Below, piece by piece: positions 26,700 through 34,477 of a stretch of DNA of 64,000 bases. The notes beneath the pieces are model-generated. The model saw nothing but the letters and a program-made list of their open reading frames with translations. It had not been told where the DNA came from and did not search any database. Location of the stretch: NCBI GenBank assembly GCA_963823655.1, contig CAWGMK010000007.1:32001-96000 (forward strand). Direction: 5' to 3'. The position numbers and the translations under genes are program-made. The stretch is from an uncultured Bacillota bacterium (GTDB taxonomy: Bacteria > Bacillota > DTU025 > MWDF01). Numbering within the stretch: the stretch's first letter is position 1; the number at the start of each line of letters is the position of its first letter.

Positions 26700-28721
26700 G
26701 TGAGCAAGATGGATTACGAGGGCATAGTAAGGCTCGATCGGATTCTCGTTATGGCCGGCGTGGCCTTTGCAGCAGTGCTGCTTCTGCTTTTCCAGGGAGG
26801 CGCTGCAAGGGAGATGTTCCTTCCCATATGCATAGCCGTTTCCGTGCTGGCTTTGGTGGCCGAAACAGGGCATCGCTACGACAGAAAAGGGCGCACCTAT
26901 GCAATGCCTTACTTCTCGGTCCCTGCTTTCATGCTCGTCATACTTGCCGCGGCGAGCACCTTCTGGAGCATCGATATCGGAAGGAGCATGGCGGAGCTGC
27001 CTAAGTACTTCCTTTACTTCCTCTCGTTCTGGATCCTATCCCGCATGGTGGATAAGCAAAGAAGGGCAGCATACTTCATATTCCTCCTGGTTGCAGGCGC
27101 CATGATGGCCTATTCGCTGTATGAATACGCCTTTCTAGCCGGCTCCGGGACGGCAGGGCCGACATTCCCGTTTGCATCACCCGAGCCTTTTGTGGCATTC
27201 GCCCTGGTCCTGCTTTCGATGTCGCTCGGCATGCTGATGAGCGTTTGGCTGGATGGGGCTGTATTGAGCGAAGAGGCTGCGGGCGCAACTCATATTGCAG
27301 TTCTTGTCGTATCAGCGGCCACCGCCCTTTTGTCGTCGGCAGCGCTGCTGCTGTCCTCTTCGGCCATGACGCTGCTTCTGGGAACCCTAATACTTGTCGC
27401 AATAGTGCTTGTCCGCGGTCGGAAAGAGTGGCTCAGATCTGCGGCTCTTGTATTGGGCGTAATGCTCATCGGGCTGTTGTTTTCATGGCTGCTCAGCTCA
27501 TATGGATCGAGCGAAGCAAGGACGGTGCCCTTCCTTCCTGCGCTTGAGGGCACGGTTGAAGGTTTCGTTAAGGAGCTCGAATACAGGGCTTATCATTGGG
27601 TAATCGCATTAAAGCTCGGGGCACAGCGTTTCGTTGGGGGCTTCGGACTGGGGACTTTCAAGGAAGCGCTGCCTCTTGCCTATGTACCTGCCGACTTCAG
27701 GCCCGGGCCAAATGCGCAAAGCTTCGCCTTGCAGCTGTTCGCAGAGCTCGGTTTTCTTGGCTTCTCATCGTTTCTGGCTCTGGCGGCATCAGTTGCAGTG
27801 AGCCTTGCAAGAAGGGTGAAGCGCAATGACAAGGATGCCTTGGCTCTGGCAGTGCCATTCGTCGCTGCCCTGATCTCCCTTTTCATCGGGGGAGGATACG
27901 AGGCGCCGGTGTTAGCAATGCTGTTTTTCATGTTCTCGGGAATGGCCTCGGCGGAAAGGCACACTGCAGCAGACGTAAAGGGAAGGAAGGGCCGGATGAG
28001 GCTTATCCCTACCGCAGCCCTGCTTGCGGTGATAGCCGGCTCGATCGTCCTCTGCTCCTTCTCCATGGCGGCGCTTACCGCAAAGCAGGAGGCCGAGCAC
28101 TATATGGACCACGGGGAATATGAAGAGGCGGTAGTCGCGATAGACAAGGCCCTGGACCTGAATTCGTACGACAAGGACCTCTATATGGCCTGGGCAAGGG
28201 CGGAGATGGCGCTGGCCAATGATGGAGTCGAGGGGCACAGCCTTGATGCGGCCCTCAGGTATGCGGAAATTGCAGTAGACCTCTCTCCTTATAGCCCGGA
28301 GGCGCTTGCGATCAGGGGCTCCCTAATTAAGGCAATGGTAGATGACGGCTCGTGGTTGGAGGATTTCAAGCAGGCATCCGCCTTCGCCGCAGACGATGTC
28401 TCAGCCAGCCTTACAGTCGCGGATGAGGGGCTAAGGACGGGTGACTTGGACATGGCGGGAGAGTACATCGACATTGCGAGGCTGAATGAGCCCCTTCTGT
28501 CAACGGGTGCGGATGTGACCACCCTTGAGGGAATAAGCGATCTCTCCAACCTGATAAAAGTCGAAGTGCTTGCCTATGTCCATGCGGTGAAATCAGGGGA
28601 TACAGATGAGGCCGAGATCATACTTGAGGATCTTAAGTTGTTGGAAGAGGAGTACCCCGACATCCACGGATTCATACACGAACTGATTGAAAGATATGGC
28701 GTGGAAGATCCCCTTCACTGA
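26700..28721 (+). CDS. O-antigen ligase-like (Wzy_C/WaaL) membrane protein with C-terminal TPR repeats
   Basis: About 12 TM segments, GFGLGTF, LQLFAELG.LG, then TPR-like helices (YEEAVVAIDKALDLNSY). Confidence 0.7.
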   Translation: MSKMDYEGIVRLDRILVMAGVAFAAVLLLLFQGGAAREMFLPICIAVSVLALVAETGHRYDRKGRTYAMPYFSVPAFMLVILAAASTFWSIDIGRSMAELPKYFLYFLSFWILSRMVDKQRRAAYFIFLLVAGAMMAYSLYEYAFLAGSGTAGPTFPFASPEPFVAFALVLLSMSLGMLMSVWLDGAVLSEEAAGATHIAVLVVSAATALLSSAALLLSSSAMTLLLGTLILVAIVLVRGRKEWLRSAALVLGVMLIGLLFSWLLSSYGSSEARTVPFLPALEGTVEGFVKELEYRAYHWVIALKLGAQRFVGGFGLGTFKEALPLAYVPADFRPGPNAQSFALQLFAELGFLGFSSFLALAASVAVSLARRVKRNDKDALALAVPFVAALISLFIGGGYEAPVLAMLFFMFSGMASAERHTAADVKGRKGRMRLIPTAALLAVIAGSIVLCSFSMAALTAKQEAEHYMDHGEYEEAVVAIDKALDLNSYDKDLYMAWARAEMALANDGVEGHSLDAALRYAEIAVDLSPYSPEALAIRGSLIKAMVDDGSWLEDFKQASAFAADDVSASLTVADEGLRTGDLDMAGEYIDIARLNEPLLSTGADVTTLEGISDLSNLIKVEVLAYVHAVKSGDTDEAEIILEDLKLLEEEYPDIHGFIHELIERYGVEDPLH

Positions 28722-29542: not shown

Positions 29543-30643
29543 TCACTCATCCCGGCTCCCGGTACGTGTAATTTTCCATATGCTCCGGCCATCTGCAATG
29601 AAAAAGCCATCAGCAATAGGGTAAATCACGGCTGGGCCTCTCAACCCCTCTACTTTTAGAATATCGGTTGTGAGAAGATTGTTATCCAGAACAACTATTC
29701 TGTCTTTTTGAGGAATGAAGTAGCTGCCTTCATAAGATAGCGGTTCTCCAATAACACCATCTTCCAGCACTGCCGAAGCCAATACATATCCATCGAATGG
29801 GCGAAGCAGCTTCAGGCTCTTGGAATCCTTTCCGACGACAAGCACGTGTCCGTCCGCGCCTACAGCCAGAAATTTAGGATTCTCCGTCTTTAACGTCCAG
29901 CTCAAGCCCGCCGTATCAAGGGTGTTCCACATGGCTAACCCTGTTCCTTCGACTACGAACAACGCGCCGTAACCCGGAACCTCTTTCATAATGAGAATAT
30001 CGGCCGGATATAGCTGGAGAAACTGCAGGTCGTTCTTTCCGTCTTCGGTTCTGATCACCTTGGAATATTTTGTTCCTACGGTAAGATTGTCGCTTCCGAA
30101 TTCATAAACTTCGCCCGTAAGAAGAAGCCTTCCATCCCAGAGTATTTCGAGGAGCCGAACCGGCCCCGGTAGCATAAGTCCTCAGAAATCACATTCCTCA
30201 TGAGGATAGTATTCCCAAAGGGAGCTTCCCTCATCGTTGAATGCCTGGATTCCGTAAGAATGCCCTACAGCGGGGCTCCCATCAGGCAGTATAGTAATAG
30301 CCACAATCTCCTCATTGGCTTCAGATTCCCACGCCTCCCTACCGTCGGCGTCGAACTTTGCCAGTATAGTCCCATATGCTATGAATAGAGATCCTTCTTG
30401 TCCAAAGGCCATGGCCTTTATATTGGATGGCAAGACGGTTTCAATAACCTTTTCCGCGGACGAATCGAATATCATCAGCTTCCTCTTATGCGACACCGCG
30501 AAGCCGCCATCCTGCGAAGCCGCAAACATGTCGTGGCTATTCTGCCCGATATGGGTGATTTCGTAATCTGAAGCAGCCGCATTCAATGGAAATGAGGCTA
30601 TTGCCAATAATACGGCAACAAAAATGAAGATCGCTCTCTTCAC
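29543..30643 (-). CDS. Exported beta-propeller (PQQ-like) protein, candidate selenoprotein with CxxU
   Basis: GTG follows GAGGTG; signal peptide; blade motifs (FDADGREAW, FNDEGSSLW). In-frame TGA at 30182-30184 reads HEECDF-U-GLMLPGP and joins the two ORFs in one frame. Confidence 0.7.
30151..30167 (-). promoter_or_regulatory. Candidate bacterial SECIS hairpin
   Basis: GGGGCC-GGUUC-GGCUCC beginning 15 nt after the UGA. Confidence 0.6.
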
Positions 30644-30988
30644 AATATCATCACCTCTTTGAGACAAGCTTGGGAGCCTATTCGCTTCTCTTGCCAAAGT
30701 GAACGCCTTGTGCGTAGTCCATGGTCTCATTCTATATCTTTTGAACAAATGTACAATTATCTATACAAAGCTTTCTATGTTTCGGCTATATTTCATTTTA
30801 GGCCATCTAGCTGGAGCTAAGCTATTACAGTTTATCTCTGTAAATCCAGCATATGCATATACCATTTTCTTGTGCTGTTCAGCGTCAGAATATTCATTTC
30901 TTTGTATAAAGAAGGACGGGGTATTATCACATAGAAAGCTATTAATCGGTCAAGCTAATTGACCCATTTTAAGGAGGGGAAGCGACAC

Positions 30989-32506
30989 ATGAAGAGGATT
31001 TTGACAGTCTCGTTGTTTGTTCTGTTAGTTCTGGCAGCCTCAGTAACCGCTGCCAGCATCCCCGCCCAACCCAGCTGGTGGACCGGTCATAATGCAGCGT
31101 TGAAAGACTTGTATGTACAGCCCGGCTATCCGCCATATGAAGAGCATGCCCGCTATATCGGCGATCTCAAGGGAACCTGGTTTGAGATGGGCGTGCAGTA
31201 CGGTGAAAGGGCCGGAGACCTCATCCGCCTTGTTTTCGAAGGCTATTATGATCAGATCTTCGCCTCCGTTAAGGACCAGGCGAGGATCATCAATGACTGC
31301 AGAGGCTTCGGAAAGTATTTGTCGCAGCTTGTACCTGAAGCTGTCGAGTTCATGCAGGGCATAGCAAAGGGCGCGTCGCCTGAGCTGGCGAAATCCCTTT
31401 ATGCCTCAATTGGAGACGATTACGACAAGATACTCATCATCAACCACTACTTCGCAGCCCGCAGAGTCTCCGGAACCCAGCATAAATGGGCCGGAACCGT
31501 AATGGATGGAGCCCCTATCCAGATAGCCGAAACCGAGGAAGATTATCCTGCTTGCAGCGGAGTAGTCGTAATCGGCAAGCTGGATGGACCTACCAAGGAC
31601 AGGACTACCATCCACGGCGGCACAAGGGACCAGGTGTTCTTCCCTCAGCTTTATGAGGTGACCTATACGCTGAGCCCTTCCGATCCTAACGCCAACCGCA
31701 TCTGGACGATTGCGTCCGCAGGCGAAATCGGCGGTCAGATGGTCGGTAACGACAAGGGCGTAATAATCACCGGTTATGCAGGAGGAACTGCTAAGGGCCT
31801 ATGGGCATACGGAATCGAGTGGAACATAGGCGACTGGTATGGTGCCTGCTTCGCCGATACAGCCCAGGAAGCAGCCGACATATTGACCAAAGGCCGCCCG
31901 GGCTTCATCGAGAAGACCGGTTCTAAGATGGTTCAGCCCGCATGGGGCATCAACTGGCTGATATCCGACCTTAAGGATGCCAAGGTTGTAGAGACTAACC
32001 CGGGAAGGTATGCCGTAAGGAGCATCGGAGATCTCGGCGAGACGGACTTCCTGATTTGTACCAACCATTGCGCCGCCACATGGAGCTATGACGAGAACCA
32101 TGTAAAATCAACCATACCGATGACCGAGTATGGTCCGGAGACCGGCACATACAGCGGCTTGTCTGCGAGCGGCACCAGGTATTGGACTCAGTGGTGGAAT
32201 GCCAAGTATAACTACGGAAAGATCGATAGGAACATGGTAATCGACTGGTACAGAGGACATTACTATATCAACAAGGATGGTATCCGCGTAGACAACATCT
32301 GGGACGCGACCTACGGATGGGTTCCTGCGAACCTGAAGTCCACATCGGTCTGCCGTCATCAGAGCGGTTTCCCGGACACCATGAAGGGCACAACAGTTGA
32401 CGCCAAAGTGGGCGTTGCACAGGATCTGGCATTCTACTTCACCAAGGGCCGCGGCCATGACTGGGTAGGGCCGTGGGACCTTCTCAGCCTGAAGAACAGG
32501 CCATAA
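30989..32506 (+). CDS. Exported Ntn-hydrolase, peptidase C45-like
   Basis: Signal peptide; G.W.EMG.QYG, EFMQGIAKG, autocleavage-type PA|CSGVV, TNH. Confidence 0.65.
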   Translation: MKRILTVSLFVLLVLAASVTAASIPAQPSWWTGHNAALKDLYVQPGYPPYEEHARYIGDLKGTWFEMGVQYGERAGDLIRLVFEGYYDQIFASVKDQARIINDCRGFGKYLSQLVPEAVEFMQGIAKGASPELAKSLYASIGDDYDKILIINHYFAARRVSGTQHKWAGTVMDGAPIQIAETEEDYPACSGVVVIGKLDGPTKDRTTIHGGTRDQVFFPQLYEVTYTLSPSDPNANRIWTIASAGEIGGQMVGNDKGVIITGYAGGTAKGLWAYGIEWNIGDWYGACFADTAQEAADILTKGRPGFIEKTGSKMVQPAWGINWLISDLKDAKVVETNPGRYAVRSIGDLGETDFLICTNHCAATWSYDENHVKSTIPMTEYGPETGTYSGLSASGTRYWTQWWNAKYNYGKIDRNMVIDWYRGHYYINKDGIRVDNIWDATYGWVPANLKSTSVCRHQSGFPDTMKGTTVDAKVGVAQDLAFYFTKGRGHDWVGPWDLLSLKNRP

Positions 32507-32587
32507 TCGAACAAACTACAATACGGGGCGCTCCGCTATTTGGGGCGCCCCAACCAGATACCAGCGCCGGAAGGAGGCGTTTCGTCT

Positions 32588-33157
32588 ATGAAAGCCCAAA
32601 AGAAGCTGTTACTCATGCTTGCTTTATCTCTAGCGATCGCGATTGTAACAGGCGGTTTCACGGGAGCTGCCGTGACCATACCGAAATTCCCAAGCCCGAT
32701 TCTCATTACCTGCACCGGCCAGACACCGGGCTCCCTCACGCTAAAGAGCTTTTTTGACGCTCTGGCGATAAAGGCGACCCATGATGAGCTGATTCTTCCA
32801 TCGAAAATGGGAGGCTTCAAGACTCTTGTCATAGTCATGGGCGCAAGCCTTAAGGGCCTGGGAGCTGCCGGAATAGATCAGGACGAGGAGATGGAAAGGG
32901 ATACTATCGTAGTAAAGAAGGCCAAGGATAGCGGCATGAAGATCGTTGCTGCACATATCGAAGGAACGGCAAGAAGGAATGCCATCGCAGACAAATTTAT
33001 AACGCCTTTCGTGCCCATGGCAGACTTCCTGCTCGTCCTTGAGGAGAGCAATCAGGACAAGCTCTTTACGCAACTATCGGAGAAATATAAGATACCTCTG
33101 CTGATATTCAAGGACTTTTCAGAGCTGCCTGCCATTTTGGAAAAGATGTTCAAGTAG
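32588..33157 (+). CDS. Exported DUF6305-like protein
   Basis: PILITCTGQ, KTLVIVMGASLKGLGAAGID...E.ER, AHIEG..RR, N.D.LFT. Confidence 0.7.
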   Translation: MKAQKKLLLMLALSLAIAIVTGGFTGAAVTIPKFPSPILITCTGQTPGSLTLKSFFDALAIKATHDELILPSKMGGFKTLVIVMGASLKGLGAAGIDQDEEMERDTIVVKKAKDSGMKIVAAHIEGTARRNAIADKFITPFVPMADFLLVLEESNQDKLFTQLSEKYKIPLLIFKDFSELPAILEKMFK

Positions 33158-33175: not shown

Positions 33176-34477
33176 TTGGAAGGGGTGGTGCAGTTGCCTG
33201 CCCATGTGATAATTGCAACGGCGGTAATGGTCCTTGCCTTTGCCGCCGGCTTAATTTTTCTTAAGAGATGGCCCATGGGGGCCTTGCTCATCATCGCTTC
33301 AGTCCTCTCTTCTATTGCCTCAGGTTTTGGATTTTCATTAAGGCACGTAGTAGAGGGCATGTTCACTTATCTGAATATCATCCTGATATGTGCTACCGGG
33401 ATAATTTTTCTAAAGTCGATAGAAGCATCGGGAGCCGCTGCCGCACTTACCCGCACACTGGTGGTCCGGCTATACAAGCAACGGGCGATCCTGATAATGG
33501 TAATAATGCTCCTTCTGCTCGTGCCCGGAGCTTTGACGGGGATTGCCGTAAATTCGGTGCTTAGCATCGGAGCCCTTGTCGCTCCGATAATGCTGGGAAT
33601 GGGCATCCCGCCCGTAAGGACAGCCGTAATAATCGGGACGGGGTCGATTCTCAGCATGCTGGTCCCTCCGACTAATCTCATCGCGATGTCCATCGCCGCG
33701 GGGATAAATGCTCCATTTGTAGGCTTTACGATCCCTACGTTCCTCCTCTCGGTACCTTTCGCACTGATTGTAGGACTTGTGATGGGGCTTCCCTATATGA
33801 AGCGCGTGAAACTTGAGGATCTTGTAGGCTCATTGCCAAAAGTAGAGGTGAAAAATGTCCTTCTTTCTTGGGTGCCGTTCATCCTTGTAATAGGACTTAT
33901 GGTACTTATAAGGGCTTTCCCGTCTACGGTGCCTGACATCGGGACTCCCCTCGTATTTATCATCGGTACCCTGGCAGCGGCCATTACCGGGAAAAGGTTC
34001 AACGTCCTCAAGCTCACAACCGACGCTCTGAGCGGCCCGATGCTAAATATCCTGGAACTGCTTCTTGGGGTCGGTGTTTTCGTTCAGATTGCAAGCCTTA
34101 CCGGGATAAGGGGAATGCTGGTTACAGGCTCGCTAAGCCTTCCTAAGCTGTTGGCATATCCCGCAGCGGCGATAAGCCTCATCCTGGCGGGCGGTTTCCT
34201 GTCTCCGTTCGGTGCGGCATCGGTCTTTGCGGTGCCGTTTGCCCTGTTCTTCCTGGACAGGAACCAGATAATCACAATCGCCGCGCTCTCTTTGCTTTGC
34301 GCTTTGTCCCAGTTTATGCCCCCAACAGCCATAGCCGGAAGGTTCTCGGCCGATGTTGCCGGAGTCAAGGACTATGGAAAGGTATGGCGGGCATCTCTCA
34401 TTCCAACGGGTATCCTGGCCCTTGTCGCCCTTGCAGTAATCTTCTGGGCGGACAAAATTGCCAGGGTTATCCTTTAG
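33176..34477 (+). CDS. DctM/ion-transporter superfamily permease
   Basis: About 11-12 TM segments, PGALTG, MLVPPTN..AM, PPTA. Confidence 0.75.
   Translation: MEGVVQLPAHVIIATAVMVLAFAAGLIFLKRWPMGALLIIASVLSSIASGFGFSLRHVVEGMFTYLNIILICATGIIFLKSIEASGAAAALTRTLVVRLYKQRAILIMVIMLLLLVPGALTGIAVNSVLSIGALVAPIMLGMGIPPVRTAVIIGTGSILSMLVPPTNLIAMSIAAGINAPFVGFTIPTFLLSVPFALIVGLVMGLPYMKRVKLEDLVGSLPKVEVKNVLLSWVPFILVIGLMVLIRAFPSTVPDIGTPLVFIIGTLAAAITGKRFNVLKLTTDALSGPMLNILELLLGVGVFVQIASLTGIRGMLVTGSLSLPKLLAYPAAAISLILAGGFLSPFGAASVFAVPFALFFLDRNQIITIAALSLLCALSQFMPPTAIAGRFSADVAGVKDYGKVWRASLIPTGILALVALAVIFWADKIARVIL

Follow-up and report, generated by a model that had tools for sequence, protein, structure and literature searches.

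The 64,000-nucleotide stretch analysed here (hereafter, the window) belongs to a metagenome-assembled genome (MAG) of an uncultured Bacillota bacterium and carries on its minus strand, at 30643..29543, a single frame of 366 codons with one internal TGA at 30184..30182. Read with genetic code table 11, this region gives two open reading frames (ORFs) on the minus strand, 30748..30182 and 30175..29543, whose junction consists of TGT GAT TTC TGA (30193..30182), the codons GGA CTT and an ATG (30175..30173). When the TGA is taken as selenocysteine (Sec, U), translation from the GTG start at 30643..30641 to the terminal TGA at 29545..29543 covers 366 sense codons, including one UGA-Sec codon, and yields a 366-residue protein with the motif C151-D-F-U154. 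Both the two same-frame ORFs split by TGA-GGA-CTT and the 366-residue read-through product had been described in an initial annotation made from the letters of the window; re-reading of the coordinates on the minus strand found all details correct, and the product was reproduced from GTG 30643 with TGA as U. We regard the locus as very probably a single Sec-encoding gene, with sequence conservation, covariation and the presence of the cognate machinery pointing to Sec insertion at position 154.

Cys151, the partner of the predicted Sec154, is encoded by TGT at 30191..30193 and occupies an invariant column in a 16-member protein alignment. Downstream of the TGA lie the ATG of Met157 (30173..30175), a possible internal restart preceded by GAGGA (from tGAGGA) at 3 nt, and a candidate selenocysteine insertion sequence (SECIS), the upper hairpin GGGGCC-GGUUC-GGCUCC at 30151..30167, in which nucleotides 30167..30162 pair with 30156..30151 around a 5-nt loop GGUUC (30161..30157). 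Residues 1–24 (30572..30643) form a signal peptide with a basic n-region of two basic residues, a hydrophobic core containing a 10-residue window with a mean hydropathy of 3.4, and an A-A-A motif followed by S, the cleavage site being judged by eye. A 10-residue N-terminal window with a mean Kyte-Doolittle hydropathy of at least 1.8 was found in 15 of the 16 aligned members, the sixteenth being shortened by the chosen start codon, and inspection by eye of the 16 N-termini revealed no conserved lipobox Cys where the hydrophobic segment ends. No separate signal peptide is present in the C-terminal half, in agreement with the single N-terminal signal peptide noticed earlier.

Conservation of the in-frame TGA and of the downstream hairpin

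A six-frame protein search over 61 related genomes found the family in eight of them, namely the genome of the window (G000), all six others of its genus, and one genome (G007) from another family of the same order. Every full-length match in these eight genomes has an in-frame TGA; three match rows marked as lacking it are pieces of split copies that lie entirely on one side of the TGA, either upstream or downstream. A regular expression delimited 26 distinct loci after removal of the duplicates L017 and L022-L025, and of L001 and L027 (the same spot) and L024 on the minus strand as non-family sequences. In the translations of these loci, the TGA occupies one alignment column behind an invariant Cys in 26 of 26 cases. 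A 27th locus, G000:C7:232457-233317, has a G-P-A sequence, was missed by the expression, and reads E-D-C-TGA. Two motif spacings occur, depending on the subfamily, either C-x-x-U (E-C-D-x-U, D-C-A-T-U, G-C-D-T-U and D-C-F-T-U) or adjacent C-U (E-D-C-U and P-N-C-U), and in every case five residues separate the motif from a downstream G-P-V/A-R/W. The homologues share 20–34% identity with the window protein, a divergence at which synonymous sites are saturated, so that a recent mutation common to all of them does not account for the TGA. With NNN at the Sec codon, a pattern scan of metagenomes recovered five further contigs, which are near-identical to known orthologs and thus add no independent lineage. 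The Sec column, at which the initial annotation had anticipated Cys or TGA in homologues, reads TGA in all 27 genomic loci and in five of five metagenome contigs, and no TGG or TGY was found there among these sequences read as DNA. The recurrence of the same TGA column and the same hairpin in every homologue examined places this feature beyond chance.

The GC-rich hairpin with a GGU loop that had been noticed 15 nt after the UGA was located at 30167..30151; its stem is separated from the UGA by 14 nt (starting at the 15th nucleotide) and its loop by 20 nt. From an ungapped alignment of the 26 loci, which reaches from 12 nt upstream of the TGA to 57 nt downstream of it, RNAalifold, unaided, predicted one 6-bp hairpin (columns 30-35/41-46). 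Stem cells are paired in 153 of 156 cases (98.1%), compared with a mean of 92.4% in shuffled alignments, none of the 500 shuffles reaching the observed value; sliding the 3' partner by one to three columns cuts pairing to 22–71%. The closing pair is GC in 13 loci, AU in four, UA in four and GU in two, while two other pairs alternate between GC, GU and AU. The bacterial SECIS (bSECIS) model, as summarized in a figure legend of a review (PMC13188914, Fig. 2), has a loop of 3–9 nt whose first two positions include a G (usually N-G-[G/U]-N-N), an upper stem of 4–16 bp, a UGA-to-loop distance of 16–37 nt, and a minimum free energy (MFE) of -7.5 kcal/mol or lower. The family hairpin falls within these values as given in that legend, having a 5-nt loop of the form NGUNN, with G-U at loop positions 2-3, in all 26 loci, a stem of 6 bp and a spacing of 20 nt. 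The MFE of the UGA plus 57 nt ranges from -12.0 to -24.0 kcal/mol in 26 of 26 loci, and the 17-nt hairpin alone reaches -7.5 kcal/mol or lower in 23 of 26. For the C-U subfamily, RNAfold frequently adds a putative lower stem in which the F-P codons pair with a G-G-G-A stretch further downstream. An Rfam scan of 30050..30250 returned no matching model, only a chance snoRNA match with an E-value of 9.6. A genome-wide search with a regular expression for TGA, 14 nt and the family hairpin gave seven matches in 2.3 Mb, six of which are family members.

Codon choice within the stem is strongly biased. The stem Gly codon is GGR in all 26 loci (35% in the genome), and GGC, which accounts for 53% in the genome, is never used there. 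The stem Arg codon is AGG or CGG in 21 of 21 cases (NGG makes up 47% in the genome) and the stem Ser codon is TCC in 21 of 21 (24% in the genome). Third positions in the loop are free, with G in 13, T in 11 and C in two loci for Pro, and A in 11, C in 10, T in three and G in two for Val. As judged from this codon usage, the stem is under RNA-level selection that is separable from protein conservation.

Selenocysteine machinery and the joined protein

The genes for Sec synthesis and insertion lie together in the genome of the window, all within C6:98054-104116, and comprise tRNA-Sec (C6:98054-98148, identified by ARAGORN), selD (C6:99704-100627), selA (C6:101044-102153) and selB (C6:102231-104116, L026). 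The set that the initial annotation had left to be confirmed is therefore present in full in a single cluster. A TGA is also present within selD, at the canonical G-U-x-x-K site, and the GGGUCC-GGC-GGACCU hairpin behind it resembles the family hairpin at the window locus. Within the class, selA was found in 18 of 21 genomes, including all eight carriers of the family. TGA is the commonest stop codon of the genome, ending 431 of 1141 open frames of at least 300 codons, and the window gene itself terminates in TGA; if TGA were read through genome-wide, long frames would cover 129% of the genome. ARAGORN found no other tRNA with the anticodon UCA in this genome. Genome-wide reassignment of TGA is ruled out by its use as an ordinary stop together with the lack of another UCA tRNA.

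Nei-Gojobori ratios of nonsynonymous to synonymous substitution rates (dN/dS), calculated for nine ortholog pairs, are 0.09–0.34 upstream and 0.07–0.31 downstream of the TGA. Judged from such comparisons, translation continues in frame through the downstream half, which belongs to the same protein. AlphaFold2, run on the 16-member alignment, models residues ~25-360 as one domain that spans both halves (pLDDT, the predicted local distance difference test score, 88.4; predicted template modelling score 0.84). Its 33 strands were read as eight four-stranded blades, and the joined chain thus forms one confident closed propeller with blades on both sides of the TGA, as the initial annotation had envisaged. 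C151 and U154 lie within residues 146-156, a short and partly helical loop (pLDDT of about 72 for this block) that connects the first strand of the fourth blade to the second.

Fold searches by Foldseek and by VIA-align, which is independent of Foldseek, both returned eight-bladed propellers, the top matches having VIA Z scores of 25.7–28.9 over about 305–322 residues. They include the designed Cake8-10 propellers, ODA16, WD40 domains of IFT-A, mycobacterial Rv3035, BamB and Bacillus YxaL, and tetrathionate hydrolase follows with a Z score of 23.9. As no single family stands out among these matches, the fold provides a scaffold and not a function.

Competing explanations, proposed function and known systems

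Several observations weigh against a Sec-encoding gene. In three of the 26 loci, the 17-nt hairpin by itself does not reach -7.5 kcal/mol, and, because the stem lies inside the conserved codons of G-P-V-R/W-S, part of its conservation comes from the protein. In the assembly of the window, selB is in two frames, with a change near 102950, and five of the seven paralogous loci of this genome have frame changes, only the window copy and C10:287021-288082 being uninterrupted. These changes may reflect real decay or indel errors of the MAG assembly, which consists of 13 contigs; the frame change in selB, taken together with the shifted paralogs, suggests indel errors. In five of five other carriers tested, selB is uninterrupted (641–733 codons) and lies beside selA. 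Cys at the Sec column was not found in 401 sampled genomes of the phylum, in 21 genomes of the class, or in the best 150 matches from an exhaustive search of 1.84 billion representative proteins, and a passage of the review states that Cys homologues exist for almost every selenoprotein (PMC13188914); such homologues are a usual and not a defining property of selenoproteins. The distant propellers P0146 and P0017, which reach the Sec column, were rejected as Cys homologues due to their weak generic alignment, P0146 having Cys opposite C151 and Pro opposite U154. One full-length representative protein, P0004, which was read as a protein sequence, has W at the Sec column; its length is 342 aa and it shares no more than 45% identity with any of the loci compared. 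Trp at this column, which the initial annotation had counted as evidence against Sec, is thus absent from all loci read as DNA and present in this one protein entry. P0004 may be a real TGG form, and it is our guess, a plausible one, that its W stems from a gene call made under a table that reads TGA as Trp. Finally, with respect to function, gene neighbourhoods are not conserved between the window and four loci of G001, and these differences leave no operon clue.

If the TGA were a true stop, the locus would consist of two genes, with the C-terminal half started on its own from ATG 30175 behind GAGGA, perhaps making a split propeller. The window copy indeed has this ATG three codons past the TGA, the SD (Shine-Dalgarno)-like GAGGA being 3 nt before it as previously described, and database gene calls are split (12 N-terminal and 20 C-terminal halves versus one full-length protein among the best 150 matches). 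However, in the 19 codons that follow the TGA, only one of 26 loci, that of the window, combines a start codon with an SD-like motif, and eight of 26 lack ATG, GTG and TTG altogether, so that independent restart, the caveat raised by the initial annotation, is a property of the window copy and not of the family. Moreover, the frame never shifts and no spacer separates the halves in the 26-locus alignment, the C-terminal half lacks a signal peptide yet supplies the remainder of an exported propeller that the TGA interrupts in its fourth blade, and both the hairpin and the codon constraint on its stem would be left unexplained, all of which makes two separate genes hardly credible. The idea of a pseudogene or an assembly error, with an ordinary propeller gene altered by a nonsense mutation or a miscalled base, as would fit the frame-shifted paralogs, the frame change in selB and a paralog on contig C4 with a second TGA, deserves practically no weight, given that the same TGA occurs in independent assemblies of seven other genomes and in five metagenome contigs and that purifying selection acts on both sides of it.

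In the remaining alternative, a standard tRNA for Trp, Cys or Arg would read through the UGA, in a programmed or leaky way and stimulated by the hairpin, and the product would be a full-length protein that contains no selenium. The W of P0004 and the lack of a Cys homologue that would anchor the Sec assignment are in its favour, and sequence evidence cannot tell which residue is inserted. On the other hand, an invariant Cys precedes the UGA by one or three residues, as in the classic C-U or C-x-x-U motifs, the hairpin fits a SelB-type bSECIS in loop and spacing and resembles the selD hairpin of the same genome, and selA is present in all eight carrier genomes. If Trp or Cys were tolerated at this position, TGG or TGY would be expected, and neither occurs in 27 loci that have diverged to 20–34% identity. 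We therefore consider standard-tRNA read-through very unlikely. The family of CxxU selenoproteins suggested by the initial annotation is supported by the TGA column, the SECIS hairpin, the machinery and the single fold.

As a selenoprotein, the gene product would be an exported eight-bladed beta-propeller with one Sec, about 340 residues long once the signal peptide is removed. When the ribosome reaches the UGA, the hairpin 14 nt downstream would act as a bacterial SECIS and recruit SelB carrying Sec-tRNA(Sec), so that Sec would be placed at position 154. Sec154 and Cys151 would form a selenenylsulfide or selenolate-thiolate centre outside the cytoplasm, with a role either in redox chemistry or in the binding of a metal or a chalcogen. 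Under selenium shortage, translation would stop at the UGA and yield a fragment with the signal peptide, three blades and one strand, because the Cys/Sec loop follows the first strand of the fourth blade. Such an extracytoplasmic centre, whether redox-active or metal/chalcogen-binding, is proposed tentatively, because the exported propeller has an invariant Cys/Sec pair in a loop, in the C-U and C-x-x-U spacings that Table 1 of the review (PMC13188914) lists for redox-active and metal/organometal-binding selenoproteins.

The BamB and YxaL-type propellers (PQQ_2, PF13360; TIGR03300) share the eight-bladed fold of the window protein. BamB (3prw, 3q54, 4hdj, 8adg, 4pk1) and Bacillus YxaL (7eq5) match its model with Z scores of 25.7–26.3 over 306–315 residues, the BamB chains having a root-mean-square deviation of 3.5–4.0. 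Sequence similarity to BamB/PQQ_2 is weak and lies in blades 1-3, and the proteins on both sides are exported and about 350–390 residues long. The window protein scores below the cut-offs of both models, at 24.8 bits versus 27.6 for PQQ_2 and 16.1 bits versus 285.2 for TIGR03300, which 11 of the 16 members match at E-values up to 0.1 (best 7e-9). No Pfam or NCBIfam family was found over its cut-off, and a scan of the 16 members against NCBIfam release 20 gave no selenoprotein model. Unlike BamB, which has a lipobox Cys, the family lacks a conserved lipoprotein cysteine, whereas the Cys/Sec loop and the conserved G-P-V-R/W-S strand that characterize it are lacking in the BamB/YxaL-type families. 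A role in the BAM complex is not expected since the host is a Bacillota-type MAG.

The same eight-bladed propeller is found in alcohol and methanol dehydrogenases dependent on pyrroloquinoline quinone (PQQ), which match with VIA Z scores of 21.0–22.0 over 335–339 residues (9m2c, 6zcw, 1kb0, 4mae) and are about 560–670 residues long, compared with about 340 for the window protein. PQQ dehydrogenases have a vicinal Cys-Cys disulfide ring near the cofactor, and the adjacent C-U of one subfamily recalls, by analogy, this vicinal disulfide of quinoprotein dehydrogenases.

Known C-x-x-U and C-U selenoproteins (GrdA, SelW-like, AhpD-like, PrdC, SaoL, HgcA, MbdU and KCU-star; PMC13188914, Table 1) have the same in-frame UGA followed immediately by a SECIS hairpin in the coding region, and pair Sec with a nearby Cys in the same two spacings as the window family. 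According to a passage of the same review, most characterised selenoproteins have thioredoxin-like folds (PMC13188914); in contrast, the window family is a propeller for which no Cys form was found. A membrane beta-barrel selenoprotein of Desulfobacterota is likewise large, non-thioredoxin, all-beta and extracytoplasmic with a C-x-x-U motif, but it is a membrane barrel and not a soluble propeller, belongs to another phylum and has Cys homologues. No propeller and no PQQ or BamB identifier is present among the 119 prokaryotic selenoprotein families and subfamilies in Table 1 of the May 2026 review (PMC13188914), which includes the families of two Haft papers. Likewise, no mention of a propeller or of PQQ was found in the main texts of this review, of deep-Sep (PMC12013277) and of BSepDB (PMC13326102), and full-text literature searches returned no described propeller selenoprotein. 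The earlier statement that no described beta-propeller selenoprotein of this kind was known held in these sources, and the family is probably undescribed. Recoding follows the canonical bacterial mechanism, and what is new is the protein, a secreted eight-bladed propeller in place of a thioredoxin-like fold.

Main discovery strategies for selenoproteins depend on Cys/Sec pairs, and gene callers cut this family into two "hypothetical proteins"; it therefore exemplifies what selenoproteome catalogues miss. In a passage of the deep-Sep paper, its authors state that the method may miss selenoproteins without Cys homologues (PMC12013277). Sec is kept in all 27 paralogs and orthologs down to 20% identity, with no Cys counterpart found, and the C-U and C-x-x-U variants on one scaffold offer a natural series for studying Sec retention. 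The family also points to selenium-dependent chemistry outside the cytoplasm in Bacillota from anaerobic digesters and sludge. A bolder and still speculative proposal is that its members might be obligately Sec-dependent extracytoplasmic propeller selenoenzymes without a Cys form, the first selenoproteins on this fold, with C-U or C-x-x-U as a catalytic redox or chalcogen/metal site, present as several paralogs per genome in an anaerobic-digester lineage and invisible to pipelines based on Cys/Sec pairs.

Distribution, gene calls and genomic context

Among the 21 genomes of the class, the family was found in seven of seven genomes of genus g1 and in the one genome of g2, and not in the 12 genomes of f4 or the one genome of f3. 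In the 401 genomes sampled across the phylum, full-length members were likewise found only in g1 and g2; 13 other genomes have weak matches of about 100–130 residues without a TGA, which cover N-terminal blades in 12 cases and positions 214-338 in the remaining one. Copy number is highest in the genome of the window with seven loci, followed by two to four in other genomes of the genus and one in G007. Related records are MAGs named "uncultured Clostridia bacterium" or "Bacillota bacterium"; activated-sludge and similar assemblies are the source of the metagenome contigs. The single member outside the genus (L009 in G007:C80, minus strand, TGA at L009 1360-1362) has about 265 open codons upstream of the TGA, compared with about 150 elsewhere, and its longer N-terminal region reaches the contig end.

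The best 150 matches among the representative proteins also comprise 117 long multi-repeat proteins (645–7935 aa) that match blades 1-3 only. Four of the N-terminal halves were inspected and stop exactly one residue before the Sec column, indicating that public gene calls split the family. Whether started from the protein or from the alignment, a word-index protein search returned a single entry, the C-terminal half P0002, the family lying beyond the reach of this index; a search of a contig library found no relative with the window protein and four already known loci with a four-member sub-alignment. A search of sequencing runs for the gene listed no RNA run and no run with more than 0.14 of its words. 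Two contigs aligned at a likeness of 80 or more span 30182..30184 without a difference there among the rows listed, an observation that is given no weight as evidence.

In the window, the plus-strand neighbours that diverge from the selenoprotein gene encode a 515-aa secreted protein without a Pfam match (30959-32506), a DUF6305 protein (32540-33157) and a DctM-like permease (33176-34477). On the other side, downstream and on the opposite strand, lies a gene (26700-28721, plus strand) whose product, a membrane protein of 673 aa, combines TPR with an O-antigen ligase (Wzy_C) domain. A DUF6305 gene within 2–3 kb is the only recurring neighbour, found at two of the five loci compared above; the second one lies about 1.6 kb from the G001:C33 paralog.

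The paralog at G000:C4:90477-91406 (L015) has a second in-frame TGA (G-V-D-G-U-L-E-C) where its relatives have Arg, with a 7-bp hairpin 9 nt downstream, and its signal peptide is in another frame. This TGA may be a CGA-to-TGA nonsense mutation in a decaying copy or a second Sec codon. The sole non-family match of the TGA-hairpin expression, G000:C13:311126 on the plus strand, compares with a rough chance expectation of ~0.03 per genome. Its TGA is the stop of a small zinc-ribbon ORF (FmdB-like, C-x-x-C ... C-x-x-C) that ends in S-C-T-P-T-TGA and is followed by four codons and TAG. FmdB-family proteins are listed among selenoproteins (PMC13188914), and the sequence context of this TGA could be that of a near-C-terminal Sec.

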